Shown one piece after another: positions 5,682 to 27,544 of a stretch of DNA of 64,000 bases (its first letter is position 1; each line of letters opens with the position of its first letter). The notes under the pieces were generated by a model, which searched no databases, was not told the DNA's origin, and saw nothing but the letters and a program-made list of their open reading frames with translations. Where the stretch lies: positions 4,800,001 to 4,864,000 of the forward strand of contig OY761158.1 in the NCBI GenBank assembly GCA_963664405.1, written 5' to 3'. Source of the stretch: Thermoanaerobaculia bacterium (GTDB taxonomy: Bacteria; Acidobacteriota; Thermoanaerobaculia; Multivoradales; Multivoraceae). Position numbers and translations under genes: made by a program.

Positions 5682-5705
5682 CATTGGAATGCGACTAGGG
5701 CCTGC

Positions 5706-6064: not shown

Positions 6065-6065
6065 G

Positions 6066-6200
6066 GCCGGGAACCGATTGGAGGCGTTGAAGGGGAACCG
6101 CAAAGGTCAGCACAGCATTCGGATCAACTCACAGTGGCGCATCTGTTTTCGATGGGTGCGCAGCGATGCACATAACGTCGAGATCGTTGACTACCACTGA
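6066..6200 (+). pseudogene. higB: HigB toxin, C-terminal half only
   Basis: Manual translation AGNRLEALKGNRKGQHSIRINSQWRICFRWVRSDAHNVEIVDYH*. No start codon; abuts the kinase stop. Confidence 0.85.
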
Positions 6201-6207
6201 GGTAAAC

Positions 6208-6513
6208 ATGCCAAGGCAGCAGAAACTGGACCCGATTCATCCTGGAGAGTTCCTGCTAGAGGAGTTCATGAGGCCGATGGGTATCACGACCAATCGGTTG
6301 GCCAGGCACCTGGGTGTTCCGCCGGGGCGGATCAGCGCCATCACCAACGCCAAGCGCTCGATCAGCGCCGACACTGCGCTCAGACTGGGCAAGTATTTCG
6401 GCGTCTCTGCAGAGGTCTGGACAGGTCTGCAGGCTGACTTCGATCTGAGAGTCGCGCGACGCGAGGTCGGCGAGGAGATCGAAGAGCGCGTTCACGAACA
6501 CCAAGTTGCTTGA
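6208..6513 (+). CDS. higA: HigA family antitoxin
   Basis: PIHPGEFLLEEFMRPMGIT...ISADTALRLGKYFGVSAEVWTGLQADFDL. Confidence 0.9.
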   Translation: MPRQQKLDPIHPGEFLLEEFMRPMGITTNRLARHLGVPPGRISAITNAKRSISADTALRLGKYFGVSAEVWTGLQADFDLRVARREVGEEIEERVHEHQVA

Positions 6514-6526
6514 GGGCTGCTACTGA

Positions 6527-6565
6527 GCCCCAGGTAGCCTCCGGCACCCGAAGGCTACCTGGGGC
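6527..6565. terminator. Strong hairpin between convergent genes
   Basis: gccccaggtagcct (6527-6540) pairs perfectly with aggctacctggggc (6552-6565). No U-tract. Confidence 0.55.
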
Positions 6566-6594
6566 CGCGGCGGCCACCCCGACCCGCGTGAGCC

Positions 6595-8421
6595 TTATCG
6601 CGGTATCAACCAGATCGGCGACGACCAGGCGCGCTCTTGATGCGTGCTCGCAAGACCGGGTCGAGGCGGCGTGCCTGCGCGCACGGCCTCCCAGGTCGAC
6701 CAGCGGCAGGTCGGATTCTCGAGCGCGCGTACGTAATAGAAAGCACGTTGACTGCGGTCGAAGTCTGGATCCGTCCAGAGTGTTTTGAGCTGCGCCGCGC
6801 CGAGGTCGGCGCTGACGCTGCAGTCTGCAAGATCCACCTCAGCGCCGTTCTCAGGGCAGCGATGGGTCTTGGGGTCGACCTCGAGACCGTCCGAGCAGGC
6901 CACGTCGTAGACCCGCTCCTGCGGCCGGCCGTCTTCGATCCAGCCCTTGATCACCTGCAGACGCTGGAGTTTCGCGGCCTCGGGGTCCTGCATCGCCCAC
7001 ACCAGGAACTGGGGTGCGCCGCGGCGCCGGGCAGGGAGGTCGGCGCCCATCGGCACACCGTGCTGGTAGGCTTTTGCCATCAGATCCTTGTCTTCGAGCG
7101 CATCGCCCTTGAAGTCGTAGCTGCCGAAGAAGCGCACCCGGATGCGCGGTCCGCTGGTGGCGAAGGTCTCCTTGCGGCGGAACGCGTCGTAGATCGCTTC
7201 GCGAGTGTTCTCGTCGGCCCAGACGCCCGCGAGGCCCGAGGCGCCCCAGGTCGGCAACCTGGCAGCCCTTCCCGTGGTCTGTGAAACGTCGCCCCAGGTC
7301 TTGGCACCCCCCGGGGGCACCGAGCCGCGCCGCTCCGGCGTCGCATCTTTGAGCCCGAGCTTGCTGAAGAACTTCGACTCTTCGTACGCCCCGCCCCCAT
7401 TATGGCCGTCGGTCGAGCCGATCATCCCGAACCGGTAGGGGTTGAAGCCCTCGTTCTCCTCGAGCTCGAGCCCGGTCAGGTAGGCGTCGCGCACATAGCT
7501 GCCACGAACGTACTCGGGCTTCCTGTTGGCGGGGGGGAGATACTCGATCCCGAAGTCGGCCCACTCGTCGTTGGTGGAGAGCAGGGGGTGTGTCTCCGAA
7601 GTGCCCTTGATCTGCGTGACCTCGACCAGTGGCTCATTGCGCATCCGCACCCGGGCGTAGGCCGCGTCGAAGGGCTCGCCCGAATTCTTCTGGCGCGCGA
7701 ACTTATGGCCGGCGCTTTGGTTCGAGTTGTGGGGAATCGCTAGCGCTTCGATGCCCTCTGCGCGCAAGCCCTCGAGCCAGTCCCACAGATCCTCGGGGTT
7801 CGGCGAGTCGAGTCGAGAGAAGGGTACCTCCGGCGCTTTCGCACTGCGGAAAATGACATTGCGGTGTTGATTGCCCCCATCGGTCTCCGATGACGTGTAT
7901 TCGTAGGCGACGAAGGTGGTGAGCTTGCCCGGCTCGTAGTTTCGCTCCGCCGACGCGATGATCTCCCGCCAAGCCGAGCGTGTGGCCTCCGGGTCGGGGT
8001 GGGCGGCAAGGAACTGTATGCCTTTGGTCGTCGAGGCGTCGTCATAGATCAGATTCGTCGGATCGAAGAAGCGGCGGCCGTCGGGATGGTTCGCCAGCGG
8101 ATGATCAGGATCCATCATCGCCCACCACCGGCCGAGATAGAAGCCGTGGTCGGTGACCGCGTAGAAATCGAGCGGACGATCGAGCTGGATATCGAAGCCG
8201 GCGGGATGTTGGATCGCCTCCCCGCGGGCATACCGGTAAGCGTCGTCGGGTGTCGAGCGGGTGCCGAAGGTGAACGCGTCCAAGGAAAAGGCGGTATGGA
8301 TGTGCAGATCACCGAAGTAGGCTTGGCGGTGCTCCGCGGCTTGTGCGCTCTGCGAAAAAGCCGCGAGGTACGCGACGAGCAGAATACTGATTCTCGGCGA
8401 CATCGTCTTCTTCTCCTTCAC
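6595..8421 (-). CDS. DUF3604 family secreted protein
   Basis: Signal peptide, YFGDLHIHT, PLDFYAVTDH, HRNVIFR, AIPHNSN, EVTQIKGTSETHP, ERAWSSPIW. Confidence 0.9.
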   Translation of the reverse strand: MKEKKTMSPRISILLVAYLAAFSQSAQAAEHRQAYFGDLHIHTAFSLDAFTFGTRSTPDDAYRYARGEAIQHPAGFDIQLDRPLDFYAVTDHGFYLGRWWAMMDPDHPLANHPDGRRFFDPTNLIYDDASTTKGIQFLAAHPDPEATRSAWREIIASAERNYEPGKLTTFVAYEYTSSETDGGNQHRNVIFRSAKAPEVPFSRLDSPNPEDLWDWLEGLRAEGIEALAIPHNSNQSAGHKFARQKNSGEPFDAAYARVRMRNEPLVEVTQIKGTSETHPLLSTNDEWADFGIEYLPPANRKPEYVRGSYVRDAYLTGLELEENEGFNPYRFGMIGSTDGHNGGGAYEESKFFSKLGLKDATPERRGSVPPGGAKTWGDVSQTTGRAARLPTWGASGLAGVWADENTREAIYDAFRRKETFATSGPRIRVRFFGSYDFKGDALEDKDLMAKAYQHGVPMGADLPARRRGAPQFLVWAMQDPEAAKLQRLQVIKGWIEDGRPQERVYDVACSDGLEVDPKTHRCPENGAEVDLADCSVSADLGAAQLKTLWTDPDFDRSQRAFYYVRALENPTCRWSTWEAVRAGTPPRPGLASTHQERAWSSPIWLIPR

Positions 8422-11228: not shown

Positions 11229-11763
11229 TTCAGACTAGGTATTTGGTTAGTTATCGACGTTTCGCCCCATTGCTATTTCGGGTAAGGTCCTTTACAGACA
11301 AGCACTTCAGCCCGCATCGAGGATAGCACTCGAGGCATGTCTCTAATGTGGTGGTGGGTGGCAGGGGAGGTTCTGGCGGCCCATGATTCCACCCGACGTA
11401 CCCCCTGCCATCGGGGCGCTACGGCTGCTCGACAAGACTGGCAAGTGCGGGGTTAAGGCCACTTGGACAGCACTCCCGCAAGGGGATTAGCCGCCTTGGA
11501 CGTGGAGCTCTGATTCTCTCTGCTAACGTGGTCCGAATCCATCCAGCTTCAGGGCCTTGCAGCCTTCAAGGCAGGAGAGAATCGCCCAGTCTGAGGTCGG
11601 TGCAAAAGACATGAGCCTAGGTCGACACTGGGACCGAGCCGAGAATGCTCGGCGCGTGGCTACTGGATCCTGGGGCCAGAGGTCGACCTGACCCGGCATG
11701 GCCATCGAACGGCCCGCTTCCCACCTCCCAAGAGCACCTGTAACTGAAGAGTCTAGTAGAGCT

Positions 11764-14715
11764 ATGACCCACCCCATCCACCGGCGCTACTACGCGGAGG
11801 ACCTTGTCCGCCGCCGCCGCGCCGGTGAGGCCCGGCGGTATGCCTCGTCGCAGCGTCAAGGCCGGATCGATGCAAACCCCCACCAGATCGACGCTGTCAT
11901 GTTCGCGCTGGGTCGGATTCCTGACGGCGGGTGCATCCTTGCCGATGAGGTCGGTCTCGGAAAGACCATCGAAGCAGGGCTCGTGATGGCGCAGATGTTG
12001 TCGGAAGGGGCCGAGAGGATTCTCCTAGTGCTTCCTCGCGCCCTGCTCGGCCAGTGGCAGGATGAGCTCTACACGTTGTTTGGCATGACGGCGATCGAGG
12101 CCGACGCCAACGACGCAGACCTCAACGCACCGGGAGTTTTTCTCGCGGGACGCGAATGGGCAGGAACTGAGAGGGGCTCGAGCAAGCTCACCAGTGGGCC
12201 CCCATTTGACCTCGTGATCATCGATGAGGCCCACGAGGTTTTCGCGGGCATCTACCGGCGCTTCGATCGGCATGGGGCGTATCGAGCCGACAGCCCGTAT
12301 GCGATGACCGCCCACCGCGTCCAGCTCCTCATCGGGCCCTCCCCTGTGCTCCTTCTCACCGCGACCCCCATGCAGAACTCGCTCAACGAGCTGTGGGGCC
12401 TGGTGCAATACATCGACCGCACCAACACCCTGCTCGGGCACCAGCCCACCTTCAAGGCGCTCTTCTGCGAAGACCCAAGCGGCCGGCGCATCGTGCCGGA
12501 GCAGTCTCTCGAGCTTCAACGCCGGCTCGGCTCCGTGGTGCAGCGAACCCTCCGCCGCCAGGCGCAGGAATTTCTCGACAAGCCCTTCGTCCATCGACAG
12601 ACCAAGCTCTTCGAGTACACCATGACCCCAGAAGAGCGTGCGCTCTACGACGACGTCACCGCCTACCTGCTCGAGCCGACTCTGTTCGCGTTCCGCGGCC
12701 GCTCGCGGCAGCTCCTCCTCATCGGTTTCCATCGCCGCATGGCCTCGTCGACGGCGGCCCTCGCACAGAGCCTCGAACAAGTCGCCAAGCGTCTGCGTGG
12801 GATTCTCAAAGGAGTCGCGGAGGCCGATCTGCCCGACATCCGTTTCGAATTCCTTGCCGACCTCGAAGACGAGCTCGACGTCCCCGAGTCTGAGGACGTC
12901 GAAGTCGAGCCCCAGCCCGAAGGCGTGAGAGCCGAGCTGGCGCGTGTCGAGGACTTCGTGCGCCGAGCCCAGGACCTTCCCCACGACAGCAAGGCGGAAA
13001 GCCTCGTCCAGGCAGTCCGAGCACTCGGCGAACGCGAGGAAGGTAGCGACAAGGTGGTGATCTTCACCGAGTCCCTGGTAACGCAGCAGTTCCTCCGCAC
13101 TCTGCTGATCGACAAAGCTGGGCTCAGCGACGAGGACATCACTCTCTTCAGCGGCACCAACGAGACTCCTCGTGCTCGCGAAGCTCTCGAGCAATGGCAA
13201 GAGGATGTGGGCAAGAACCTCGCTCCTCATGCTAAGCCCAGCAAGAAGGTCGCGATTCGCCTGGCGCTCGTCCACGACTTCAAGACCCGCTCCCGCGTCC
13301 TCATCTCGACCGAAGCGGGCGCGAAGGGTCTCAACCTGCAGTTCTGCGACACTATCGTCAACTACGACCTGCCCTGGAACCCCCAGCGCATCGAGCAGCG
13401 CATCGGCCGCTGCCACCGCTACGGCCAGAAGCACGACGTCACCGTCATCAACTTCCTGGCATCGGACAACGAGGCCCAGCGCCTCACTTTCGACATCCTC
13501 AGCCAGAAACTAGAGCTCTTCGGAGCCGTCCTTGGCATGTCCGACGAAGTACTCCACCAGCCCGGAAGCGACGGCAACTCGCAGCTGGGAATGGCGCTCG
13601 GGCCCGACTTCGAAAGTCAGCTCAACAAGATCTGGGATCGCGCGCGCTCCGTCGAGGAGGTCGAAGAAGAGCTGCGCAAGCTGCGCGATTCGATGGACGA
13701 TCGGCGACGCGAGCTGGAAGAAGTTCACGAGCGGACCGTTGGTCTGATCGAGAGCCGGCTCGACGAATCGGTACACCAGGTTTTCCGCCGCATCCGCGAC
13801 GAGCTGCCGGCTACTCTCGCCGAGCTCGACAAGGAGCTCGAGCGGGTCGCGCTCAGCTACCTCGAAGCCGCCGATGCCCCTCACCAGGTTCGCGAAAGCG
13901 GCGAACGGCGCATCATCGAGCTCTGGCGAGATCCTCGGTTGCCCGAACCACTCGCTTCGGGCCTTACCATCGCTGTGGGCGGCTCCAGCGGCCTCGAGGA
14001 TCTCGAGCCTCTTCACACCAGCCACCCCTTGATCGAGGCGGCTCTCGCCGAGGCACGTGAAGCCGGGTCTGGCAACTTCCGGCTGCGCTTCGAGCTCGGC
14101 GAGAATTCCTCGGAGATCCTCCAGCAACGCCGTGGCTCGCGTGGCCGTCTCGCCCTGACCAAGGTGTCCTATGACGGCTTCGAGCGAGAGGATCGCCTCA
14201 TCGCGACGGCGATCTTCGAAGACTCTGACGTCCTCCGCCCGGCAGAAGCCGCCCATGAGTTCCTCCAGCTCCCCTGCACTGAGCTGCCGGCCTCGGTCCC
14301 CGAGTGGTCGCTCACCGCCGAGGAGCTCGACGAAGTCGTTGATGAAGAGGTCTTCCTCGACCAGTCGGCGGCGGCGCAGCGCGACCAGGCGAGCTTCGAG
14401 AAGTCGATCGACCAGCTCGACCAATACATGGAAGATCGCGCCCTCCTGCTACGGCGCAACCGCGCCGACCTCACCGGGCGCATCGAGACCGCTGAAGCCA
14501 AGCGTGACGGCGCGCTCGGCGCCGACGCGCGCAACGACGCAGAAGAGAAGCTCAAGAAGCTCGAGCTCGAGGCGGAGGAGATCGACGCGTCCCTCGATCG
14601 AGTCGCTACTCGCCAAGACCCCGACTACGAGAAATGGAAGAAACACGCCCACACCAGGCGCTATCGATCACCCGAGGCCGAGCGCCTTTTCAGCGTTGAG
14701 TTCGAGCTCGCGTGA
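11764..14715 (+). CDS. SNF2-family (SF2) helicase/translocase
   Basis: NPHQ Q-motif, ILADEVGLGKT, IIDEAH, LLTATPMQN, STEAGAKGLNLQ, NYDLPWNPQRIEQRIGRCHRYGQ, C-terminal coiled coil. Start could also be 11698. Confidence 0.92.
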   Translation: MTHPIHRRYYAEDLVRRRRAGEARRYASSQRQGRIDANPHQIDAVMFALGRIPDGGCILADEVGLGKTIEAGLVMAQMLSEGAERILLVLPRALLGQWQDELYTLFGMTAIEADANDADLNAPGVFLAGREWAGTERGSSKLTSGPPFDLVIIDEAHEVFAGIYRRFDRHGAYRADSPYAMTAHRVQLLIGPSPVLLLTATPMQNSLNELWGLVQYIDRTNTLLGHQPTFKALFCEDPSGRRIVPEQSLELQRRLGSVVQRTLRRQAQEFLDKPFVHRQTKLFEYTMTPEERALYDDVTAYLLEPTLFAFRGRSRQLLLIGFHRRMASSTAALAQSLEQVAKRLRGILKGVAEADLPDIRFEFLADLEDELDVPESEDVEVEPQPEGVRAELARVEDFVRRAQDLPHDSKAESLVQAVRALGEREEGSDKVVIFTESLVTQQFLRTLLIDKAGLSDEDITLFSGTNETPRAREALEQWQEDVGKNLAPHAKPSKKVAIRLALVHDFKTRSRVLISTEAGAKGLNLQFCDTIVNYDLPWNPQRIEQRIGRCHRYGQKHDVTVINFLASDNEAQRLTFDILSQKLELFGAVLGMSDEVLHQPGSDGNSQLGMALGPDFESQLNKIWDRARSVEEVEEELRKLRDSMDDRRRELEEVHERTVGLIESRLDESVHQVFRRIRDELPATLAELDKELERVALSYLEAADAPHQVRESGERRIIELWRDPRLPEPLASGLTIAVGGSSGLEDLEPLHTSHPLIEAALAEAREAGSGNFRLRFELGENSSEILQQRRGSRGRLALTKVSYDGFEREDRLIATAIFEDSDVLRPAEAAHEFLQLPCTELPASVPEWSLTAEELDEVVDEEVFLDQSAAAQRDQASFEKSIDQLDQYMEDRALLLRRNRADLTGRIETAEAKRDGALGADARNDAEEKLKKLELEAEEIDASLDRVATRQDPDYEKWKKHAHTRRYRSPEAERLFSVEFELA

Positions 14716-15869
14716 CCAACCAGGAGACAGAAGACGTGGCTCTCAAGCTTCTCCACACCGCCGACTGGCACCTCGGTCGCCGCTTCCCCATGTTCAACGA
14801 AGACCAAGAGCGGGGGCTGACGCGCGCTCGCCGCGACGTCGTCGGGCGGATTCTCGATCTCGCTGAGAGTCGCGGCGTCGATGCTGTCCTCTGCGCCGGG
14901 GATCTCTTCGACGAGCCTGCACCCGCCGAGGAGTGGTGGAGCGCCGTGCTCGACGAGCTCCGCTCACGCAGTGACTGGACCAGGCCCGCCTTCCTTCTGC
15001 CAGGCAACCACGACCCGCTCCTCCCCAACTCCGTCTATCAGACCGGGCATCCCTTCCGCGAAAGCCTGCCAAGCTACGTGCACGTCATCGATCGAGAGGA
15101 CTACGAATTCCAGATCTCGGACCAAGCCGTTCTCTACTCCACCCCCTGCCGCTCTCATGCGGGCCAGCTAGACCCGACAGCGCGCATTCCCATGCGCGAA
15201 CCCGGCGACGAACGCATCCGCATTGGCTTGGTACACGGCCAAACCTTTGACATGGAAGGGCACCAGACCAACTTCCCCATCGATCCGCAAGCCGCGAAGG
15301 AGCGAGGCCTCGACTATCTCGCCCTCGGCGACACCCACGCCTTCCGCGAGCTCCAGAACGCGGGAGAGCCTCCTGTCGTCTACCCAGGGGCTCCGGAACA
15401 GGCAAAGTTTGGTGAAACGGACACTGGCCACGTAGCAGTTGTCTTCTTCCCACTCGATCGGGGCCGCTTCGCATTAGTCGAGAAGCAGGCCGTTGGCGCC
15501 TGGCAGTGGCGTGAGCAAACTTGCTCATCCATTGAGGAGCTCCGCTCCCTGCGTAACGACGACACTCTCAGAAAGTGTGTTCTGCGACTCCAGGTCAACA
15601 TGACCGCTCCGCTGAAGGAGTACGACGAGGCCGAGCGAATCCTAAGAGAGTTGGAGGGCTCCCTCTCGGCACATCCTCGGGTCGGTGTCCTCGAGGTCGA
15701 TCGGAAGAGTCTCCGACTCGAGAGCCCGAGCATCGACGACTTCCCCGAGCTCCCTCCGGTCCTCCAGTCCGTCGTTGAGCGTTTGAACGCTCGTGCCGGC
15801 CAAGAGCCCGAGAAAGCCGAGCGTGCTCTTCACTACCTATATGAGCTGGTGAAAGGGAGTAGCGCCTGA
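14712..15869 (+). CDS. Mre11/SbcD-like (YhaO-type) metallophosphoesterase nuclease
   Basis: LLHTADWHLG, AGDLFD, LPGNHDP, GLVHG, DYLALGDTH, YPGAPE. GTGA overlap with the SNF2 stop. Confidence 0.9.
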   Translation: MTNQETEDVALKLLHTADWHLGRRFPMFNEDQERGLTRARRDVVGRILDLAESRGVDAVLCAGDLFDEPAPAEEWWSAVLDELRSRSDWTRPAFLLPGNHDPLLPNSVYQTGHPFRESLPSYVHVIDREDYEFQISDQAVLYSTPCRSHAGQLDPTARIPMREPGDERIRIGLVHGQTFDMEGHQTNFPIDPQAAKERGLDYLALGDTHAFRELQNAGEPPVVYPGAPEQAKFGETDTGHVAVVFFPLDRGRFALVEKQAVGAWQWREQTCSSIEELRSLRNDDTLRKCVLRLQVNMTAPLKEYDEAERILRELEGSLSAHPRVGVLEVDRKSLRLESPSIDDFPELPPVLQSVVERLNARAGQEPEKAERALHYLYELVKGSSA

Positions 15870-18800
15870 TGTGGCTTCGGAAGCTCCATGTGCGCTCTTT
15901 CGCCGGCATCAAGGAGGCAGAAGTCAACCTCGAACCAAACCTCAACGTTCTCTACGGGCCCAACGAGCTCGGCAAGTCGACTCTCCTGCAGGCGATCCGA
16001 GCGGCCCTGCTTCTGCCCCACAGCTCCGCCAGGCACCGACCCTTCATCGATTGGCATGACGACCGGCCGCCCAGAGTCACCCTTACTTTCGAGACGGAGG
16101 AGCAGCGCATCTGGAGGGTGCAAAAGAGCTTTGGAGCCGGCGCCGACGGCTCGAGCCTCCTCGAGTTCTCGCGCGACGGCCTGAGCTTTAGTCTCGACTG
16201 CAAAGGCCGCGAAGTCGATGGCAAGCTCCGCGAGTTGCTCAGTTGGGGCGCCGGCTCCCCCGGCGGCAGCAAGGCACGAGCCGCAGGCTGGCCCGACACC
16301 TTTCTCAGTACCGCTCTGCTTGGATCACAGGATGAAGTTTCTGCGATTCTCGACAAGGGGCTGGAAGGCGACCTCGACGAATCGGGCAAAGACCTCATCG
16401 CGCGCTCTCTCCAAGCAATCGCGGAAAGCCCCGTGTTCAGAAGCGTTCTCGAGAGAGCTCAGGAGAAAGTTGAGAGGGCCTACACGGCCACAGGGAAAAA
16501 GAGCAGAGCGAAGGGCTCGCCCTGGATGGGAAGCCAGGAGCGCATCAGGCTCCGCCAGGAGTCTCTGGAGAGTATTCAGCGCCTTGCCGACAACAGCAGC
16601 GCGGCGAAGCTCGAGATGGAGAAACTGCAAGAGCTGCTTCAACAAGCGGAGCTGGAGCAGAGCGAGGCTGCTGGCGGGCTCCAGGAGATAGAAACCGCTC
16701 ATTCACAACAGGAGGCTTGGGTCGCCGCGTCCCGACTCCTCGCCGCGGCGACCGAAGAACGCGATCGCATCCTCGGTCTTCACAAGGCAGTCGAGACGAC
16801 CCAGGCTGAGATCGATCAGGCAAAGAGCGAATTCTCCATCGCCGAGGAAACAAAGAAGGGTGCCGAAGCGGACCTCCTCGCCGCACAAACGGAACACCAG
16901 CAGGCTAGGCAAAGAATCCTCGATCTCGAGAGTGACGATGTTGAGCAGAAGCGCAAGATTCGCAGGCAAGAGATCGAAAAGAGCGTCCTCGAGCTGGAAG
17001 GTAGGCAGAAAGACGCCCAGCGCGAGGTGGAGCTCGCGAAAGACGCCCTAGCTAAGGAGCGCGAAGTCAGTGAGCTGGGAAGCCGCATCTCAAGCTTAGA
17101 GAAGCAACTGTCTGAAGCCCGATCCCTCGTTGAAACCGCGCGAACGGAAATCAAGAAGGAGAGGCAAGAGCTCAGCGAGATGACGCTCTACGAGAAGCTC
17201 CGCGCCTACCAATCGTCTAGCCAAGCCCTCACGAGCGCCAACAAGGCCAGAGACAACGCAGCAGAGCTCCGCACCCAAGCTGGGGCCATGAAAGACAAGG
17301 CTCGTACCTTCCGCAGCGAGGTGGCAGCCCTCGGTCTGCCAACCGATGACGCCCTCCGCGAGTTGGCAGCGTTAGAACGGGAGCTCGAAATCGCAGAGGC
17401 GAAGGTTCAGATCGAGCTCTCTCTTCTCATTCGCCCTCTTCGTGAAATCGAGATCAGTATCGACACCGGCGATCGCCCCACAGAAACCCGTAAGATCAGC
17501 AGCCCGGAGACGTTCGAAGCCCAAGGTGTTCTCCGTGCTCAGATCGGCGACGCGGCAGATATCGAAGTATCCGGCGGCAACGCCGATCAGCGCCAGGAGG
17601 CAGCCGACGCTAGACTACGATGGGAGAGGACCTCAGCACCCCTTTTCGAGAAGTTCGGAGTCTCGACCCGGGTAGATCTCGAGAGTAGCTGCCGCTCGGA
17701 GAGCGAGAAACTAGTCGAGGTCGAGCGGATCGAAGGAGAGGCCGCAAACCTGGAGGCAAGAGCCGAAGGGCTCGGGCATGCCGGAAGCCAACTGGAAGAG
17801 CTGGAGGCCAAGGCGGAGACCTCCAAGCGATCCTTGGAGCTCGCCCTTCCAGAGGGGATTGCTCTCGAAGAGCTCGAATCGCGCTTCGAGGGAGTCGAGC
17901 AGGGCGAGCTTGATCGACAAGAGCTGGAAGACCGAATCGCTACCAAGGAAGAGCAGGCGCAGATCCTAGAAACGAAGATAGCGGTGGACGAGGGACAGCT
18001 CGAATCCCAGAAGGAGGAGCTCGAAGCTCAGAAGCGTGAGAGCGCCGAAGCCCGCGACAAGTTACCCGACGATCCACAGAAGGTGTTCGAGCGAGCGACG
18101 TACTTACTCGGGGAGTACGAGAAAAACCTCCAGGCGGACTCCGCCGAGCTCGAGGTCCTCGATGGCTTCGCCGAGACTGAGACGGCCGAGGCACGCGTGG
18201 CGCAGGACTCTGCTTCCAAAGCCGTTGAGACTGCTAACGAATGTGCGCGATCGGCAGACAGCGCCAGAAATGCGGCCAAGCAACGGGTCGACAGCCTGGA
18301 AGGAGAGCTCCGCGCTCGTGAGGCAGCCGCGGAAGTGGAGGACATGACCGCCTCACTAGCACTCGTCGAGGATAGAGAGAAGGCGCTCGCCGACCTGCCA
18401 GAATCTACGTCCCAGGTCGACGAGGAACAGCTCACCTACGCCAGATCAGAGGTTGAGCTTGCAAAGAAGGAGCTCGACAGGTTGCGGCAAGAATTCAGCA
18501 AGCAAGAGGGCGCTCTCGAGCAGGTGGGGGGCCAGTACGTCGACGAGAAGACGTCGGAAGCCGAGGAAGCTCTCATCGCCGCCACGAGAGAAGAGCAGGA
18601 CGTCGAGCTCGAGTACGCCTCCTGGCAACTACTGCTCGAAACGCTCAAAGAGGCAGAAAGCGAAGACGCCGTCCATCTCGGTAACTCCCTTGTCGTCCCC
18701 ATCAGCGAGAACATGAAAGAGCTCACCCGCGGGCGCTACGACAAAGTCTCGCTCGGCCCCAAACTCTCCGGCACGTCGGTCTCGCTCGACGGCTCGGATC

Positions 18801-19102
18801 GAGAGCTCGATCTCCTCTCGATCGGCACTCGCGATCAGCTCGCCACCCTCATCCGCCTCGCCGTTGCCCAAGCGGTAAAGAGTGCCCTCGTACTAGATGA
18901 CCAGCTCGTCCAAAGCGACCCCAAGCGTATGGAGTGGCTGACTGAGCTCATGTACAAGTGCGCCGATGACTTCCAGGTAGTCGTGTTCACCTGCCGGCCG
19001 GAAGAGTACGAGCTACCGAACCAGACAGCGAGAGCCAACTGGGTGAACCTCGAGAAAGTCGTGGAAAGAACGCAGCCCTTGCAACTCGAGACATCCGAGT
19101 AG
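15869..19102 (+). CDS. Rad50/SbcC/YhaN-like SMC-type ABC ATPase
   Basis: Walker A GPNELGKST, long coiled coil, signature LSIGTRDQL, Walker B/D-loop LVLDDQLVQSD, QVVVFTC. TGATG overlap with the upstream gene. Confidence 0.9.
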   Translation: MWLRKLHVRSFAGIKEAEVNLEPNLNVLYGPNELGKSTLLQAIRAALLLPHSSARHRPFIDWHDDRPPRVTLTFETEEQRIWRVQKSFGAGADGSSLLEFSRDGLSFSLDCKGREVDGKLRELLSWGAGSPGGSKARAAGWPDTFLSTALLGSQDEVSAILDKGLEGDLDESGKDLIARSLQAIAESPVFRSVLERAQEKVERAYTATGKKSRAKGSPWMGSQERIRLRQESLESIQRLADNSSAAKLEMEKLQELLQQAELEQSEAAGGLQEIETAHSQQEAWVAASRLLAAATEERDRILGLHKAVETTQAEIDQAKSEFSIAEETKKGAEADLLAAQTEHQQARQRILDLESDDVEQKRKIRRQEIEKSVLELEGRQKDAQREVELAKDALAKEREVSELGSRISSLEKQLSEARSLVETARTEIKKERQELSEMTLYEKLRAYQSSSQALTSANKARDNAAELRTQAGAMKDKARTFRSEVAALGLPTDDALRELAALERELEIAEAKVQIELSLLIRPLREIEISIDTGDRPTETRKISSPETFEAQGVLRAQIGDAADIEVSGGNADQRQEAADARLRWERTSAPLFEKFGVSTRVDLESSCRSESEKLVEVERIEGEAANLEARAEGLGHAGSQLEELEAKAETSKRSLELALPEGIALEELESRFEGVEQGELDRQELEDRIATKEEQAQILETKIAVDEGQLESQKEELEAQKRESAEARDKLPDDPQKVFERATYLLGEYEKNLQADSAELEVLDGFAETETAEARVAQDSASKAVETANECARSADSARNAAKQRVDSLEGELRAREAAAEVEDMTASLALVEDREKALADLPESTSQVDEEQLTYARSEVELAKKELDRLRQEFSKQEGALEQVGGQYVDEKTSEAEEALIAATREEQDVELEYASWQLLLETLKEAESEDAVHLGNSLVVPISENMKELTRGRYDKVSLGPKLSGTSVSLDGSDRELDLLSIGTRDQLATLIRLAVAQAVKSALVLDDQLVQSDPKRMEWLTELMYKCADDFQVVVFTCRPEEYELPNQTARANWVNLEKVVERTQPLQLETSE

Positions 19103-19288
19103 ACTCCTAACAGTCCCTGGAACCCAAGTGAGAGTGCCCGATGTATTCAGGCGCTATCCACCGAATGGGCTCAGATCTCGCGTATCTCAGGTCGCCGGTG
19201 CATCCTGAAGGCACTGTCAAGTTGGCCTCGGTCGAGATAAGCTTCGGCTTGTTGAATGTCCGTCGGCTCGGAGTCAGTGGGCACACGT

Positions 19289-19542
19289 CACCTGCGCACG
19301 ACCAATCCAATTGAGTCGACCTTTGCGACCGTCAAGCTGCGCACCAAGAGGACCAAAGGGTGCGGCAGTCGAACCGCTTGCCTCACCATGGTCTTCCAGC
19401 TCGCCAGGTCCGCCGAAAGGCGATGGCGAGCTCTCAATGCAGCCAGCCTCTTACCTGATGTCTTACGAGGAACCGAGTTCGTCGATGGAGTAATACAAGC
19501 CGCCTGACTCGAACCTCAGAGCACAACTTTTGACAGTATCTC
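19289..19542 (+). mobile_element. IS256-family 3' fragment with right end
   Basis: HLRTTNPIESTFATVKLRTKRTKGCGSR...FVDG. End sequence cacaacttttgacagtatctc. Confidence 0.8.
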
Positions 19543-19588: not shown

Positions 19589-22500
19589 CAGAATCGGTAG
19601 TAGAGCCAGACGGCATAGCTGATGATGTCGGGCGGGAACCGGTGGCCGCGGTAGCTGGTTTGTCGCTCATCATCGGTCCAGTCCGACGGCGACCGCCTCA
19701 ACTTGACAATGCCAGCGACGTGGCCGAGGTGCCATACAGGCCTTGGGAGGAGCCGAGCCGCCGTTGCGGGTAACCAATAGCGCTAAAGCAACCGGCCTTG
19801 GGAGCGGGAGTGTGCGTTGCCCACCGACTCAGCCCAGACGCGTCACGCTTTTAGCGCCGAAAGGTACTCGCCCTGAGGTGCCAGCGCCTATGCGGGTTCA
19901 AGCTCGGTAGGATCCGTGATGAACAGGCGAAGCTGCCTGCGCAGGCGCGGGAAACACCTCGACGGTTCGTCGAACGAGAGAGCCACTACCTCTGGGGAAG
20001 GCGCTCTTTGCTCTCTGTTTGGAAAGAAGAGGCGAAGCCCTTCTGGTTCGTGACTTCCGATAGCCGATCTGCACCGGCCGGGCAAGATAGGATGGGCAGC
20101 GTCGAATGGAATACCTTACCCCCTATCAAGCACCGTCGACTCCTGGGCGATTCATGGACATCACACTCCGCGAAGCGTGCCCTCCTCTGGAAGACGCCCA
20201 GCCAGTTTCGCGTTCCTTCCGCAACCTCCAGGCAAACCGCGAGCACATCCACATGATGGTGGTAGGAGGGCATGAGTCCACTCGCTAGTCGCACCTACTC
20301 GAACGCCTCTTGCGAGAGAGGGTGGCCCCCAGGCCTGCCGTCGACTGACGTGCCCCTTCCCGGCTCCATAGAGGGTCGTCCATGACGGAACCAGGGACCG
20401 ACCCGGACCGCGAGAAGGGAATCTCGCTATACAAGTTTCTTCTCGAGTTGACCAGACTTCGTACGAGGGTCGTCCACTCGATTGACGATTACCCGACGAG
20501 GACGATTTTCTTGGGAGATGTGCCGATCGACCATCGGTGTCGCTCCGGCCTATGGGTTCGTGAGGGACTGCCAGAGGATGGTCGGCAGGACTTGCTCCCG
20601 CGGGCCGATGACTGCTGGCTGGAAGTCGACAAGCCGGACTTGGCGCCCCCTCCGAAACCGAGTGAGAGCCTCCGGCCCTGGATTGTTGAAGAGCAACTTC
20701 ACGATTCGAAACTGGACTTCCCCGAACTGCGAGCGGAGCGGCTGTTACTCGACGAGAACGGCGACGCGACAACGATCGAGCTGAGCAACGAACCGGGTGT
20801 CGAGGATGACTGGAACCACTTTGTTGAGGAAGAGTGGTGGCCCTGGGCCGCGCGAGATCGACGGCTACGACCCCTTCAAGATCTCTATGCCAAGCTCTTC
20901 TCAATTCACCAGGCGCTTGGTCTCGAGGGGGAGCGGTACGAGCTCCTTGTCGGACAGGGCCTGCTCGCCTGGAAGTCGGCTGGCGGTCTCGATGTAAAGA
21001 GGCATCTTCTTGTTGCGTCGGCTGCGATTCAGCATGACGCCGACCGCGGCATCATCACGGTGGGCCCCGCCGGCGACGGCCCTGACCTGCGTCTTGAAGA
21101 AGAGATGGTCCCGCCAGAGCAGCGTCCGTCCGTGTTGGGCCGAGGCGATGTCGACGACCTTCGGCAGTCGGTTGGGGACCAGATCTTCACACCGGTCCCG
21201 GTCGATCGCCTCCTTCGGACCTGGGTACAGGACGCGGATGCTGCCGGCCAATACTCCGAGTCCCTTTCTCCACCTCCGCGCAGTGCGGAACCGATCGTCC
21301 ACCTTGCACCCGCACTCGTGCTGCGTGAGCGAACCGACCGTTCCTTCCTTAGAGCTTTCGAAGAGATCCTCGAACAGCTTGAGGCGGGCGAGCCCGTTCC
21401 TGAGGGGCTGAAGCGTTTCGTAACCGCCGCCGATGCATGGAATCCAGGTTCAGGGGGCAGCCCCTCGGGAGGGAGTGCCGCGGGGAGCTCGGAGATCTAC
21501 TTCCCCCTCCCCGCAAACGCTGAACAACGCGAGATCGTAGATCGCCTTGGCCGCCGGCCAGGTGTCCTCGTTCAAGGGCCCCCAGGCACCGGTAAGTCCC
21601 ACACGATCGTCAATCTAATCTGCCACCTCCTTGCGACCGGTCAAAGGGTTCTGGTGACGAGTCACACGGCCCGTGCCCTGGCTGTTATTCAGAGACTGCT
21701 GCAGAAACGAGTCGCGGTGATCGCGCCTCTTGCCGTCGTCGCCATGGGCAACGACCGTGACTCTCTTGAGGCGATGGAAGGGTCTGTCCAGGGCATCACC
21801 AGTCGTCAGAATTCTTGGGACCCTAGGGTTGCGCAGCGCACAATCGAATCTCAGGTAGAGAGGCTCGACGAAGCTCGCCGGCTCAAAGCTTCCACGCTGA
21901 CGCGACTGAGGGAATTACGTGAGCAGGAGACTCTGCGTCAGGGGTTGCGCTTCGGCTCCTACAGCGGGACTCTCGGGCAGATTGCATCGCAGCTTCGCTC
22001 CGAGGAGGAGGAACTTGGCTGGTTGGCGGAAGCCGTTGGCGGCGAGGCCTCTCCCCTCTTAGCACCGCAGAGTTCGGCCGGCTTCTCGGGCTTCTCCGCT
22101 CTCCAGCCATCGACGCTGCAGAAGAGAGGGGGGTCGAAACCTCAGACCCTTCGGCTCTCCCGCGCCCCGAGGATCTGCAGAGACTCGCTGAACTCGAGCA
22201 AGAAGCTGAGCTAGCTGACCAGGCAGTCGAAGGGCTGCACTCGCATCCCGTGTTCGCGCCGCTTGCGAGTCTTGAGGACGAAGACCGAAAGTCCGTAGGT
22301 ACGAAGCTCGAGACGCTCCTTGACGGTGCGAGGCTGGTGGGGAACCACCTCCAAGAATGGACCGAGCACGCCGTTCACCAGGTCCTTGGTGACCGCGATC
22401 GGGTCTGGCGACAGCTACTCGCGGCGACAGAATCGCACCTGAAGCGGATTGGAGACCGTGCGCCCTGGGCTGATGAGAACCCAATGCTCGAGGGTACGGG

Positions 22501-23409
22501 GCGCCACCCGGACGCAATCGCTTCTGATACGCGAGAGGTGATTAAGCACTTCGAGGCCGGAAAAGGTTGGGGCCTTGGTCCGTTCGCCAGATCTCGGATC
22601 AAGGCCTGCCGCTATCTTCGGGAGGTGAGGATCGGAGGGCGTCCCTGTCGTGCACTTGAGAGTCTTCGTGACCTCGCCTCTTGGCTTGATGTCGACCGTG
22701 AATGCCGCGACCTGAACCTTCTCTGGCGCGAGCACACGAATCTCTCTGGGAAGCCTTTCTGTGTTCAGGTCTCGGAGTATGGGGACCTCTGCGAACCTCT
22801 GGCCTCGGTGCTCGATCTCTACGAAGTACGCGATGAGGCCCGTGCCGCTTATCAGAAACACGGTTTGGCTGAACCGACGTGGCACGACCTCAAAGATGTG
22901 GAGGGCCATCTGTCAGCACTGCGGGCCGCAGATGCTCGGGCTCGGAGGGAAACAGTTCGCCAGCGAGCAGGGGACCTCCGAGGCCGCCTCCAGACTGTGC
23001 GAGCCGTGGGCAAGGCGCCTTCAGAGGTGGGTAGTCTGCTTAGCGCCTTCGAGGAGCGGGACGTTCGCGCCTTTCGAGAGGCGAGGGAAGCGCTGGAAAG
23101 ACTGCACGGGCTGTTGCTCGAAGCCGATGAGCGGCGAGCCCTACTCGACCGACTGCGATCTGCGCTTCCTGAGACCGCGGCCCAGCTCGAGGCGACCTTC
23201 CATGACGAGCCGTGGTCCCGCCGGGCTCAGACCCTGGAGAGGGCCTGGCGGTGGGGAGCCTGCCGAGCATGGGTGAGAGTGAGCACGATAATCGATGGGA
23301 ATGTTGGCCATTCTGAGCACGGTAGGTGAGGGAAGGGTGTTTGGTCCCTCAAGTAGTGTGCTCAAGACTAGGTCCGTCGGCATCATCCCCGCCGAAGGCG
23401 GGCCGTCGG

Positions 23410-24773
23410 GGATCCGTCCCGAATGCTGTGGAAATTGAGAATGGCGTAACCTCCTAGTGGTCAAACACATCGCCGGTTAGGGCGAACGGAGGATTACGCC
23501 ATGGTGGAGAATATCAACGAGGAAGGGGAAGCTGCACGCTTCCGTCAGGACATTCGTTCGTTGTTACGCGAGCGTGTTCGTGCGGCGATCGAGATCACAC
23601 TCGAGGAAGAGCTGTCCGAGGCGCTGGGCTGCAGCGCCTACGAGCGTTCAGGCGAGCGTGCGGGCTATCGCAACGGCAAGCAGCGTCGTCTGATCACGAC
23701 GGCGTGTGGGTCGAAGGAACTGGACATTCCACGAGGACGGCTAGTCGGCGAGGATGGGGCCAGCGTAGAGTTTCGCAGTGCGATCGTGCCGCGTTACGCT
23801 CGTCGTACGCAGGAGGTCGATGACGCGATCCTGGGTGCGTATCTGGCTGGCGCTAACAGCCGCCGGATCAAGAAGGCATTGGCTCCGCTGCTGGGTGAGG
23901 AGCACCTGTCCAAGAGCGCAGTTTCGCGTGTGGTGTCTCGGCTGAAGGAGCTTTTTGCTCGCTGGAGTGAGCGCGATCTGTCGGAGGAGTCCTACGTGCT
24001 TCTGTTTCTCGATGGCTTTCACCTGAAGGTCCGCTTGGCCCGTCGAGTGGTCTCGGTACCGGTGCTGGTGGTGCTGGGTGTGACTCCGGACGGCACCAAG
24101 GTGCTGGTGGCCTTACGTTTAGCCGCGAGCGAGGCCGCCGAGCACTGGAAGTGGCTGATCGAGGATCTGAAGGCCCGAGGTCTTCAGGCTCCGCGCTACC
24201 TGGTCACGGATGGCCACAAAGGGCTGGCCGCGGCGCTGAAGGCTTGGCCTGAGGTCAAAGTCCAGCGCTGCGTCCAACACAAGTGGGAGAATCTGAAGAA
24301 ACACTGCCCGGTGCACGCACACGACGAGCTGCGGCGTGACTGGCACTCGATCGTACGAGCCGAGGACGCGGCACAGGCCCGCAAGGCCTACGCGGCGTTC
24401 GTCACCAAGTGGTCGCGACTAGTCCCGGCGGTGGCTCGCAGCCTTGAGGAGGCAGGGTTCCAGCTACTGACCTTCTACGAGCTCCCCAAATCGCTGTGGA
24501 GTTCGGTGCGCACGACCAACGCTCTGGAGAACCTGAACCGCGAGTTTCGTCGCCGCACTAAAACCCAGGGCTCCTTTGCCACCGAGGCTGCCGGCGTCAC
24601 GCTCCTCTGGGGGCTCGTCGCCTTCGGGCAGATACACCTGCGAAGGATTAACGGCTACCGGGCGCTTCAGCTCCTGCTCGAGGTTGAGAGGGCCGCGTAA
24701 ACGGTAGGATTTAGCAAAAGACGACTCGGAGGACTACGCCTGAACCCATTTCCACAAAAAACGGGACACATCC
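23410..24773 (+). mobile_element. Complete IS256-family element
   Basis: Imperfect TIRs GGATCCGTCCCG..GTGGAAAT and GGATGTGTCCCG..GTGGAAAT. 8-bp TSD gccgtcgg (23402-23409 and 24774-24781). Confidence 0.9.
23501..24700 (+). CDS. IS256-family (Mutator-like) transposase
   Basis: GYRNG, LFLDG, LVTDGHKGL, QRCVQHK, RTTNALENLNREFRRRTK. Confidence 0.93.
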   Translation: MVENINEEGEAARFRQDIRSLLRERVRAAIEITLEEELSEALGCSAYERSGERAGYRNGKQRRLITTACGSKELDIPRGRLVGEDGASVEFRSAIVPRYARRTQEVDDAILGAYLAGANSRRIKKALAPLLGEEHLSKSAVSRVVSRLKELFARWSERDLSEESYVLLFLDGFHLKVRLARRVVSVPVLVVLGVTPDGTKVLVALRLAASEAAEHWKWLIEDLKARGLQAPRYLVTDGHKGLAAALKAWPEVKVQRCVQHKWENLKKHCPVHAHDELRRDWHSIVRAEDAAQARKAYAAFVTKWSRLVPAVARSLEEAGFQLLTFYELPKSLWSSVRTTNALENLNREFRRRTKTQGSFATEAAGVTLLWGLVAFGQIHLRRINGYRALQLLLEVERAA

Positions 24774-27544
24774 GCCGTCGGGGCCTGACGCGCAGTCCAT
24801 ACTTGTTCTTTCGCTGATCACGCTGAACGAGGGCTGACACGCAGCGATGGGATGAACGGCACGCTATCTGATGGGCGATCGAGGCGGTTCGCCGAGCTTC
24901 CATCGCGCTTGGGCCCCTGGTTGCGCCCTCAGATACCTTGAACGGAACACCCATTCCCACCAGACAACGTGATCGGGTTTCCTCGAATCGCCATCAAATA
25001 CTGTGAACAAGACCGTCTGAGGCAAGTGGCAGCGAAACGCAGCTTCGGCTAAGTCCTTCAAAAGGCTACGCGACCATCACTTATCGTGATCGGACCGCCA
25101 TCGATTATCGTGCTCACTCTCACATGGGTGGGGGAATTTGCCGATCCGAAAGCGGCTCAACGCTTGACCGCGAGTCTCGAGCAGGCGCGGGCCGAAGAGT
25201 CGAGTGCGATAGCTGAGCTCGCTGCAGCTAAAGCTTGGTCCTTCTGTTTCGAGCGAATGACGGACCACGAACGCCAACACCTCGTCGCTTGGTCAAAGGC
25301 GGTAAGGAATCTCGGAAAAGGCACGGGGAAGTACGCCCCACAGCATCGGCGGAATGCGCGCGAACACATGAATGAGTGCCGGTCCGCCATTCCCGCTTGG
25401 GTCATGCCTCTCTATCGTATTGTCGAGACAGTGAAGCCCGGCTCGGATCTGTTCGACGTGGCTATCATCGATGAGGCCAGCCAGTCGGGGCCCGAAGCGC
25501 TGATCCTGCCTTATCTCGCTAAGCAGCTAGTGGTAGTCGGCGATGACAAACAGATCAGCCCCTCCTACGTCGGCCTGAATCGTGCGGGAGTTGCTCAACT
25601 GCGGCGGACCTACCTTCAGGACCTGCCACACCCCGACGCGTTTGGCGTTGACCATAGTTTCTTTGATCTTGCCGAGATTCAGTACGAGGGTCGAATTCGA
25701 TTGCATGAGCACTTCCGCTGTATGCCAGAGATCATTCAGTTCTCCAACAATCTCTGCTATGCAGCGGAGCCGCTCACTCCTCTCCGCCAGTTCGCTGCCG
25801 GTCGCTTGACTCCGGTTGTGGAAGCGGTGCGAGTGGGTGGCGGCTACATAAAGGGCACTGGGAGCAAACAGATCAACCAGCCCGAGGCCGAGGCACTGGT
25901 GGCGAAGATTGAAGAACTCCACGCTGATGAGAGGTATGAGGGGAAGACGTTTGGGGTCCTCTCCCTCTTAGGTCACGGCCAGCATGGCCTGATCGAGAGG
26001 ATGCTCCTTGAGCGTCTTGGAACGAAGGCAATCCGCGATCGACAGCTCGTCTGCGGTCAGCCCTCCGCATTCCAGGGCGATGAGCGCGACGTCATGTTCC
26101 TTAGCCTGGTCTCGGCCGCAGTCGAAGGACAGCGCATCAAGACCCTGAGCGGCGAAAGCGACAAGCAGCGCTTCAACGTAGCGGCGAGTCGGGCGAGGGA
26201 CCAAATGTTCCTGTTCCACAGCGCCGGCATCGATGACCTAGGGCGAAACTGTCTCAGGCGGGCTCTTTTGAGCTACTGCTTGAACCCGCGCGTTGAGATG
26301 AGTGGGGATTCAGGTGTCGATGTAGAGCGCCTTCGCCATCAGGCCAGAACCGTCGCCCGGACGATCAATCCCAGCAATGCCCCCAACCCCTTCGGTAGCT
26401 GGTTCGAGGTCGATGTCTTCTTGAAGATCGTCGGCGCCGGTTTCCGTGTACTCCCTCAGTACGAGGTCAATGGGTACTTTATCGATCTCGTCGTCGAGGG
26501 CCTACAGGGGCGGCTGGCCGTTGAGTGTGACGGGGACCACTGGCACGGCCCCAAACAGTGGGATGCTGATACGGCGCGGCAGCGAGACTTGGAGCGCTGT
26601 GGTTGGCGATTCAAACGTCTTGGCGAGTCTGTCTTTCGGTTAGATGAAGACAGCGCGCTTGAAGGGCTTTGGGCCGAGTTGAAGATGCTGGGGATACGCA
26701 CCATGGCCCAGGAGATCGATATCCCGGAAGGCGGGGAAGAAAGCGAGCCTGCAGAGTCTCTTCATACCCCCGCTGAGACTCGCTCGCCCCCCAGCCGAGT
26801 TGGTCCTGTCGAGACAAGGCTGCCGGCTGGATCTCGTGCTGACGCGCCGGCTGCTCATCTTCGCGGGCTGAGCGACGGTGAAAGTCTCTCGCCCGCAGAA
26901 GAAGACGCTCGAAGCTCTCCGAGATCTCCCCTTCTTCCAGATCCTACCGAAACCGCACCCTCAGGGTTGGTCGATGGCTTGCTGGCATTGATTGAAGAGG
27001 AGGGGCCGATCGAGGAGACAGCCCTCTTCCAGCGCTTCGTGAAGGCAGCAGGCAGGCATCGGGTGAGAGCGGCCCGACAACCTCTGGAGAACGCCGTCGA
27101 AATTGCGCTGCTGCGTGGGTTGATCGAAGTGTCGGCCGAGCGGTCGGAAAGGAATTCAGAGGAGAGAGTTCTGAGGAAGAGTGGCACGCCATTGGTACGA
27201 GTTCGCCTGCTGGGCAGCCGCCGCCTCCTTGAAGTTCCCCCTTCCGAGTTGAGGGCTGTGATGCAGGATCTCCATGAGAAGCAGCCGTGGCTTGCCGGGG
27301 AGAACCTCTATCGAGCGCTGCTCACGTTCTACGGCGCAAAGAAGCTCACGACGGGGATCAGAGAGAGATTGAGTTTCGTTGAGTCGGGCCTCAGTGAGCT
27401 TTGAGGGGTGTTCCCCCGGGCACTGTCAAGTGGAGGCGCTGACTGGCAGACTACGCAGATGAATGCCAAACCACCGAGCTACGATGGATACCGGTTTCCG
27501 ACCGAGATCATCAGCCACGCCGTCTGGCTCTACTATCGCTTCTG

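Follow-up and report, generated by a model that had tools for sequence, protein, structure and literature searches.

The window analysed here is a stretch of 64,000 nucleotides from contig OY761158.1 of a Thermoanaerobaculia bacterium (assembly GCA_963664405.1), and coordinates are given within it unless another genome is named. On its + strand, between 11698 and 19102, lie three long open reading frames (ORFs) of 1005, 385 and 1077 amino acids (aa), which encode an SNF2 helicase/translocase, an Mre11-like nuclease and a Rad50-like ATPase, referred to here as the trio. The three genes are a conserved, co-inherited unit, and comparative genomics suggests that this unit is probably an unnamed bacterial immune system. 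The features of the locus are the following:

11229-11763, no strand: presumed promoter region; non-coding, flanked by the divergent gene of a LuxR-type regulator and by the SNF2 start
11698 (or 11764)-14715, + strand: SNF2 ORF, 1005 aa, or 983 aa counted from Met23
11764-14715, + strand: DrmD-like SNF2 helicase/translocase (Pfam SNF2-rel_dom, Helicase_C and ResIII; DrmD models)
12241-12315, + strand: segment 3' of the DEAH box with an insertion of about 14 residues specific to trio-type SNF2 (from alignment)
14712-15869, + strand: nuclease ORF, 385 aa, GTG start overlapping the SNF2 stop; calcineurin-type Mre11/SbcD-like metallophosphoesterase (Metallophos, TIGR00619, metal-site motifs)
15869-19102, + strand: ATPase ORF, 1077 aa, ATG start; Rad50/SbcE-like SMC-type ATPase without a zinc hook (P-loop matches, motifs, fold)
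17417-17575, + strand: small beta-rich domain at the coiled-coil apex of the ATPase, residues 517-569 (six predicted strands)

The SNF2/nuclease junction at 14712 reads GTGA, with the GTG start laid over the TGA stop, and the nuclease/ATPase junction at 15867-15871 reads TGATG, where one base is common to the stop and the ATG. A sequence-only reading of this locus had described a coupled three-gene operon with intact catalytic motifs; both overlaps are present, and each motif that it quoted was found in its place in the three proteins. Regarding the SNF2 start, position 11764 (Met23) is likelier, since the homologues are about 983 aa long and cover 98% of the 1005-aa ORF. In the upstream stretch (11229-11763) there is no ORF of at least 150 aa, a consensus scan found no sigma-70-like site upstream of the trio, and terminator-like sites at the locus were no more frequent than in shuffles. 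The LuxR-type regulator was rejected as a conserved fourth part, as it lies upstream only in the window and in one other locus (L069), with a likeness confined to the helix-turn-helix, and is missing from the other loci.

The three encoded proteins

The first protein has the SNF2-related N-lobe, the Helicase_C lobe, the Walker A motif, the DEAH box and the motif VI of the SNF2 superfamily (Pfam PF00176, 78 bits; PF00271, 62.4 bits; ResIII was also matched). Its motifs HRRYYAEDL (residues 28-36), NPHQIDA (60-66), GLGKT (86-90; 11953-11967), DEAH (176-179; 12223-12234) and QRIGRCHRYGQ (567-577; motif VI, 13396-13428) are invariant or nearly so in an alignment of 25 homologues, and more than 120 homologue clusters match it over the full length at 60-98% identity. 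The top PADLOC model for this protein is DrmD (PDLC02619, 442 bits). The NCBIfam model DISARM_DrmD_b (NF038318) gives 443.9 bits over residues 54-711, below half of its cut-off of 950, and a second DrmD model (NF038317) gives 222.9 bits over residues 166-983, with a cut-off of 610. As the latter alignment reaches residue 983, the C-terminal region is common to the wider family. The AlphaFold2 model of the protein, with a mean predicted local distance difference test (pLDDT) of 63.4, was too weak for a fold search of that region, and only an outline of its secondary structure was used.

Most of the distant relatives of this SNF2 that were sampled are linked to type III restriction-modification (R-M) genes. 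Twelve were examined with full flanks, and a type III Mod gene was found beside 11 and a Res gene beside eight; the likeness of the N-terminus to type III R-M-linked SNF2 proteins, which the sequence-only reading had noted, was thereby confirmed. These type III-linked proteins share 28-38% identity with the window SNF2, and among 68 loci with an SNF2 in that range only L042 and L069 have a comparable adjacent nuclease-ATPase pair. Weak matches occur in L073, to the nuclease (49 bits, about 4.6 kb downstream of the SNF2 gene), and in L054, to the ATPase (40 bits). Trio-type and type III-linked proteins are split in the SNF2 tree with a Shimodaira-Hasegawa-like approximate likelihood ratio test (SH-aLRT) value of 100, the close set being taken from the homologue listing irrespective of individual linkage to the pair. 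Moreover, the insertion of about 14 residues after the DEAH box occurs in both close and remote (L042, L069) trio SNF2s and is missing from 11/11 aligned type III-linked relatives. That the other members of this SNF2 superfamily sit in restriction-type loci counts in favour of a defence role.

Some of these relatives have further genes beside them. In the four type III-linked loci that were scanned for it (L045, L066, L078 and L079), the neighbour of SNF2 is a gene for an AbiU/MzaE-like protein of about 600 aa. In L045, a 1032-aa ABC-type ATPase with Ppl/mad3-like matches stands between the two, and L061 has ORFs sized and ordered as in L045, compared by size and order alone. These five loci, with type III Mod/Res and a DrmD-like SNF2, look like a multi-gene restriction-like system.

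The second protein matches Pfam Metallophos (47.3 bits) and scores just below the cut-off of TIGR00619 (sbcd; 74.5 bits, cut-off 77.65), whereas NF008206 gives 44.8 bits with a cut-off of 450. No model of PADLOC-DB 2.0.0 (2023) matches it. Its metal-site motifs, DWH (residues 18-20), GDLFD (63-67), GNHD (98-101) and GDTH (206-209), are invariant among the 39 homologues aligned. A complex prediction with the SNF2 core (residues 23-620) and the nuclease gave a score of 0.00 (mark 0.32), which speaks neither for nor against binding.

Concerning the third protein, profile matches are confined to the N-terminal P-loop (AAA_27 and AAA_15, with weak matches to LmuB, GajA and PtuA). AAA_27 gives 27.7 bits with a cut-off of 22, but over residues 1-47 only, and TIGR00618 (SbcC) does not match. 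The catalytic motifs are GPNELGKST (Walker A, residues 30-38; 15956-15982), LSIGTRDQ (signature, 983-990; 18815-18838), VLDDQ (Walker B with DD, 1008-1012; 18890-18904) and FTC (1040-1042; 18986-18994), and they are invariant or nearly so among 36 aligned homologues. This family keeps the Walker A GPNELGKS, the Q-loop and the signature LS(V/I)GTR(E/D)Q; Walker B is LDD(Q/H)L in 32 of the 36 members, and at the H-loop position an invariant T-C precedes R (22), H (10) or some other residue. No CxxC is present in the window ATPase, nor in the middle 40% of any of the 36 family members. The missing zinc hook and the FTC at the H-switch are as first described.

The AlphaFold2 model of the ATPase (pLDDT 81.4; predicted template modelling score 0.41) shows two head halves, residues 1-215 and 959-1077, connected through long helices that fold back on each other as an antiparallel coiled coil. 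At its apex, between helices 493-515 and 572-596, six strands (residues 517-569) are predicted to form a small beta domain, which sits where Rad50 and SbcC bear the CxxC hook; D534, A551 and G570 are conserved positions of this apex. Foldseek matches of the model (Smc5/6, condensin, MukB, JetC and Rad50) indicate a generic SMC/Rad50 architecture. The length of the family remains steady, at about 1065-1080 aa, though identity drops to about 30%.

Conservation, distribution and neighbourhoods

The order and strand of the three genes are kept in 21 loci, namely the window, eight genomes of genus g11 (same family), six GTDB contigs, four further Acidobacteriota and two remote loci. These include 19/19 loci with a nuclease of at least 47% identity, so the three-gene unit first proposed from the window also stands across genomes. 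Carriers span Acidobacteriota, Myxococcota, Aminicenantes and Spirochaetota. In genus g11, 7/22 genomes encode a nuclease about 60% identical, always with SNF2 (58-62% identity) upstream and the ATPase (33-41%) downstream; the eighth carrier was found later. When one genome per GTDB species was scanned, an SNF2 of 49-63% identity turned up at seven loci: one each in Polyangiaceae, Thermoanaerobaculia, Terriglobia and Luteitalea, two in Bryobacteraceae, and one on a Myxococcota contig. The trio is kept in six (Polyangiaceae, Thermoanaerobaculia, Terriglobia, Bryobacteraceae and Luteitalea), one of these with truncated SNF2 and ATPase frames (L035), and the seventh contig ends inside SNF2. In the remote loci, from Aminicenantes and Spirochaetota, SNF2 identity is only 32% and the gene order is identical.

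An even sample of 401 Acidobacteriota genomes contained eight with a trio-type nuclease (E <= 1e-60), all eight flanked by SNF2 and the ATPase, and four loci from this sample were new, being no duplicates of the earlier ones. The distance from the nuclease stop to the ATPase start is -4 to +17 nucleotides in 13/16 loci, and the remaining three have ambiguous starts. Nuclease homologues amount to more than 1800 clusters at E <= 1e-30. As a rough proxy of linkage, 20 of the 120 listed nuclease clusters match a listed SNF2 cluster in longest-contig size, compared by eye. All-against-all clustering of seven g11 loci and the window showed no common gene beyond the three.

The comparisons portray the trio as sporadic, apparently spread horizontally and often found inside defence or mobile-element islands. 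It occurs in 8/401 sampled Acidobacteriota genomes (2%), in 4/228 genera, and is polymorphic inside genus g11 (8/27 genomes, five of the 27 checked only at the gltX-glnS junction). In g11 the trio is always placed between the GluRS (gltX) and GlnRS (glnS) genes, alone and without element genes. At this junction, 15 further g11 genomes have the trio in one case and an empty site or other cargo in 14: four are essentially empty (9-222 bp), eight have about 0.85-1.6 kb of other sequence, and two have 3.5 kb or 4.6 kb of it. In the nuclease tree, 15 close SNF2-linked sequences form one clade (SH-aLRT 100), in which a Myxococcota copy is nested among Acidobacteriota copies, and SNF2 and nuclease homologues at 61% identity carry the source label Gammaproteobacteria.

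The g11 junction (L108-L122) appears as a variable hotspot in its own right. Its insert of about 1 kb has a 198-aa ORF with weak PDC-S09/PDC-M05A matches, and the 4.6-kb insert (G034) encodes a different SbcD-like protein and a 1079-aa LmuB-like ATPase, without SNF2. Distant nuclease and AAA-ATPase pairs (about 30% identity), also without SNF2, are found on conjugative plasmids of Bradyrhizobium japonicum and Rhizorhabdus wittichii (L123 and L124); the pair of pSWIT02 adjoins an Abi-family gene and a DUF1814 (AbiEii-like) gene.

Clear defence genes were found in five of 12 independent trio contexts (the window, L034, L035, G207 and G354) and mobile-element genes (insertion sequence (IS), integrase or recombinase) in four; L037 and G375, with contigs too short for this purpose, are not counted. 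In the window, the trio is followed by a PDC-S37/Mokosh-like helicase-nuclease gene (PDC-S37-like, 134 bits), by DarG and by BrxD/SngB- and BrxHI/SngC-like genes. The helicase-nuclease gene (20382-27404; AAA_11/AAA_12 and MTES_1575) aligns in three pieces to an intact homologue of 1747 aa: one break is a frameshift near 22030-22055, and the other is caused by the gene of an IS256-family transposase (23501-24700). A C-terminal transposase remnant (Mutator/IS256-family, 19256-19507) lies just 3' of the ATPase gene, and the neighbouring island genes are therefore broken, as had been claimed. Elsewhere, Gabija is directly downstream of the trio in L034 (GajA, 470 bits; GajB, 368 bits), AbiEii and DUF6088 are upstream and a RAMP protein downstream in L035, and a KAP nucleoside triphosphatase with a QatA-like match is near the trio in L042. 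G354 has BrxA, a resolvase, an IS element and a large serine recombinase; G147 has an integrase, an IS element and DUF6079 fragments; L036 has an integrase fragment, and L033 a SIR2-domain protein without a PADLOC match. In G207, the intact 1747-aa MTES_1575 helicase-nuclease is directly upstream of the trio on the same strand.

As a rough control, 12 pair-only loci (nuclease and ATPase without SNF2) with 106 flanking ORFs were scanned. They gave six matches at E <= 1e-25, all generic kinase, sigma-54 AAA or partial UvrD domains, and showed no defence neighbours, and no SNF2 match was found within the 12.6-20 kb of flank of each. Moreover, the pair-only nucleases follow taxonomy, with families f1, f2 and f3 cleanly separated in the nuclease tree. 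In three of these loci (L020, L021 and L026), a UvrD-type helicase-domain protein of 1150-1280 aa is encoded within 10 kb of the pair, which hints at a repair neighbourhood for the clade without SNF2.

Other genes of the window were also annotated. The left side of the island is marked upstream (1-8421) by what look to be ordinary chromosomal genes, two of them for DUF3604 proteins and two forming a DUF1800/DUF1501 pair. Downstream, two convergent genes (29971-35495) may form a module related to Shango or BREX; one encodes a 1066-aa protein with SAP domains and a BrxD/SngB-like ATPase (284 bits), the other an Lhr-type helicase similar to BrxHI/SngC (498 bits). They are followed by a fragment of a PDC-M27C/ZacC-like helicase (36715-38622), a DarG-like macro-domain protein of full length (39778-40839, 405 bits) and an IS21-type pair of Mu-transposase-like and IstB genes (42733-45119).

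A candidate immune module and its rivals

We give an even chance to the specific reading that the trio would be a self-contained, horizontally mobile, methylase-free module directed against invading phage or plasmid DNA. A fuller version of it, possible though held tentatively, is a methylation-independent immune system in which an SbcEF-type complex would have replaced Mod/Res beside a DrmD-like SNF2, with the ATPase sensing DNA ends and SNF2 feeding or clearing DNA for processive destruction. In the main reading, the nuclease and the hook-less ATPase would form an SbcCD-type complex with ATP-controlled binding and cutting of DNA ends or hairpin-like structures, and the ATPase may dimerise through its apical beta domain in place of the zinc hook. 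The DrmD-like SNF2 would be a double-stranded DNA translocase that substitutes for the Mod/Res partners of its relatives; it could clear proteins from the target DNA or drive the nuclease complex along it, and one cut would thus lead to degradation. Discrimination would depend on DNA ends or structures and not on methylation, and the cell's own DNA could be spared because a circular chromosome has few free ends, not through marking.

Several points weigh against the defence reading. Neither 72,556 plasmid records (best 31% identity) nor 50,697 phage records nor 2.9 million viral contigs (best 28%) contained a close copy. A phage- or plasmid-borne origin was rejected on these searches, and the mobility of the trio is therefore inferred only from phylogeny and flanking recombinases. 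There are no defence or mobile genes at L038, where the neighbours are LpxC and an ABC transporter, at L069, or at the g11 site between aminoacyl-tRNA synthetase genes. The tally of trio contexts has no formal background rate, and its control is rough, as trio and control flanks were scanned at different thresholds and the g107 flanks with Pfam only. Furthermore, the nuclease and the ATPase are not directly tied to any validated defence system, since no PADLOC model matches the former and the matches of the latter are at P-loop level. The nearest characterised analogue, SbcE/SbcF, is described as serving double-strand-break repair and competence (PMC2811018).

The main rival to the defence reading is an accessory DNA-repair module, which we consider unlikely. 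It holds that an SbcEF-type end-processing complex has gained an SNF2 remodeller of its own, one that strips broken or blocked DNA ends of proteins or stalled complexes; eukaryotic remodellers assist Mre11-Rad50 resection and provide an analogy for it. The role of Bacillus subtilis SbcE/SbcF in double-strand-break repair and transformation, as described in PMC2811018, is in line with this rival, and so are the name 'DNA repair exonuclease SbcCD subunit' given to homologues by their sources, the vertical inheritance and housekeeping contexts of the sister pair-only clade, the UvrD-domain protein near three of its 12 loci, and the housekeeping neighbours of the trio in g11 and L038. Nevertheless, it would be unusual for a repair function to be present in only eight of 401 sampled genomes of the phylum and to be polymorphic within one genus. 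A canonical SbcCD is already encoded in the genome, the recurrent neighbours of the trio are Gabija, AbiE, BrxA, DarG, IS genes and recombinases, and the relatives of the SNF2 belong to restriction-type loci.

Quite improbable, in our assessment, is that the trio is mobile-element cargo that serves the element itself, by competition between elements, exclusion of rival plasmids or processing of its own replication intermediates, and not host immunity. This possibility agrees with the recombinase, integrase and IS genes found around the trio in G354, G147, L036 and the window, and with the distant pairs of the conjugative plasmids, which have Abi and DUF1814 neighbours. However, the plasmid, phage and viral-contig records hold no close homologue, and the g11 trio stands alone between two core genes, without element genes.

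Finally, it is very improbable that the trio is a sub-module of a larger system, with the AAA_11/AAA_12 and MTES_1575 helicase-nuclease or an unrecognised modification gene as extra parts: two unrelated genomes have the helicase-nuclease next to the trio and in the same orientation, G207 with an intact copy upstream and the window genome with a broken one downstream, and a small class I methyltransferase lies just upstream of the trio in L038, but no fourth gene is common to the seven g11 loci and the window, the helicase-nuclease occurs in only those two of the 12 independent contexts, and in the window it is inactivated while the trio remains intact.

If the trio is indeed a defence system, it would represent a new immune design, with a chromatin-remodeller-type motor and a complete Mre11-Rad50-type nuclease and no DNA modification. 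It would also indicate that one SNF2 family can exchange a restriction-modification module for an end-sensing nuclease module, and it could provide a simple three-gene model of how remodellers help Mre11-Rad50 complexes to reach DNA ends, in direct parallel to remodeller-assisted Mre11-Rad50 action in eukaryotes. Moreover, the contrast between a pair-only clade with vertical inheritance and an SNF2-linked clade that is mobile would be a natural case of a repurposed repair machine.

Comparison with known systems

DrmD-type SNF2 proteins of class 1 DISARM (NF038318/NF038317) share with the trio SNF2 a domain layout over the full length, including the N-terminal NPHQID motif and the C-terminal region. 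The trio SNF2, in contrast, scores below both DrmD cut-offs, has the insertion of about 14 residues and forms a separate clade. Its partners are an Mre11-like nuclease and a Rad50-like ATPase, whereas the methyltransferase, Res, DrmA/B (DUF1998) and AbiU/MzaE-like partners of DISARM or type III loci are missing. It had been claimed that no methyltransferase lies beside the trio, and none was found among 19 chosen ORFs of the first 45 kb of the window (small ORFs were not all scanned), nor adjoining the trio in other loci, except for the small class I enzyme in L038. No DUF1998/MZB domain (PF09369, DrmA/B) occurs anywhere in the 6.78-Mb, 97%-complete genome, with a positive control that matched 8/14 reference genomes, and PADLOC found no REase_III (Res) among the window neighbours.

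A DISARM identity was therefore rejected on the SNF2 score, the genome-wide absence of DUF1998/MZB and the lack of a methyltransferase among the scanned ORFs, and a type III R-M identity because both Mod and Res are absent. The trio was also rejected as a degraded remnant of either system, as 21 loci conserve the methylase-free trio in intact form and DUF1998 is absent from the genome.

Like SbcCD/Mre11-Rad50, the trio has a nuclease with calcineurin-type motifs, encoded ahead of an ATPase with an ABC-type head and a long antiparallel coiled coil. It differs in the missing zinc hook, in Walker B with DD instead of DE and in the T-C-(R/H/K) of the H-loop, and its nuclease falls just below, and its ATPase far below, the SbcCD models. 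The canonical SbcCD pair lies elsewhere in the genome (G000:C1:2321449-2324992; scores of 177.4 for SbcD and, with the best model, 281.2 for SbcC), so the trio is not the housekeeping SbcCD; this identity was rejected on that pair and on the lack of a hook.

The closest characterised analogue of the nuclease-ATPase pair is SbcE/SbcF (YhaN/YhaO) of B. subtilis, and the assignment to the YhaO/YhaN type instead of housekeeping SbcCD, made in the sequence-only reading, is consistent with the hook-less ATPase. In PMC2811018, SbcE is described as an SMC-like ATPase that lacks the hook and has a unique central domain between coiled-coil arms of about 300 aa, its gene lies downstream of that of the SbcD-like YhaO, and both proteins, which are conserved in Gram-positive bacteria, act in double-strand-break repair and in competence and transformation. 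The trio pair is arranged in the same way: its SMC-like ATPase, hook-less and with a central domain, is encoded directly after an SbcD-like nuclease; this likeness rests on the published description and on the 47-residue AAA_27 match. As far as that account goes, SbcEF has no SNF2 partner.

Concerning the system as a whole, the claim that no named system has this composition stands for the trio, which matches none, but not for its SNF2, which is labelled DrmD-like (442 bits with PADLOC and 444 with NCBIfam). One component therefore belongs to a named superfamily, and the system remains unnamed. PADLOC-DB 2.0.0 (2023) has no system of this composition, none of the three proteins has an equivalog in NCBIfam (June 2026), and a full-text literature search found no published description of an SNF2, nuclease and ATPase trio. 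It is not mentioned in the accessible portion of a paper on BREX diversity (PMC12839542).

Lamassu (LmuABC) and Wadjet (JetABCD) share with the trio the proposed logic of an SMC/Rad50-like sensor of ends or topology coupled to a nuclease, and JetC was among the Foldseek matches. On the other hand, the trio is without LmuA, LmuC, a kleisin or a Toprim partner, and has a complete Mre11-type nuclease and an SNF2 motor instead. The best LmuB model on the ATPase gives 35 bits over residues 1-93 only, and LmuA and LmuC were unmatched. Since the LmuB match is at P-loop level only, the trio is not Lamassu, and this identity was rejected. For Lamassu itself, an origin from SbcCD and the sensing of viral DNA ends have been argued (PMC12663957). 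If the defence reading is true, the trio would be a second, independent recruitment of the SbcCD lineage into immunity. The trio is well supported as a conserved module, and as a candidate immune system it would be a variant of two known kinds, the SNF2-containing restriction-like kind and the SMC/Rad50-based kind.

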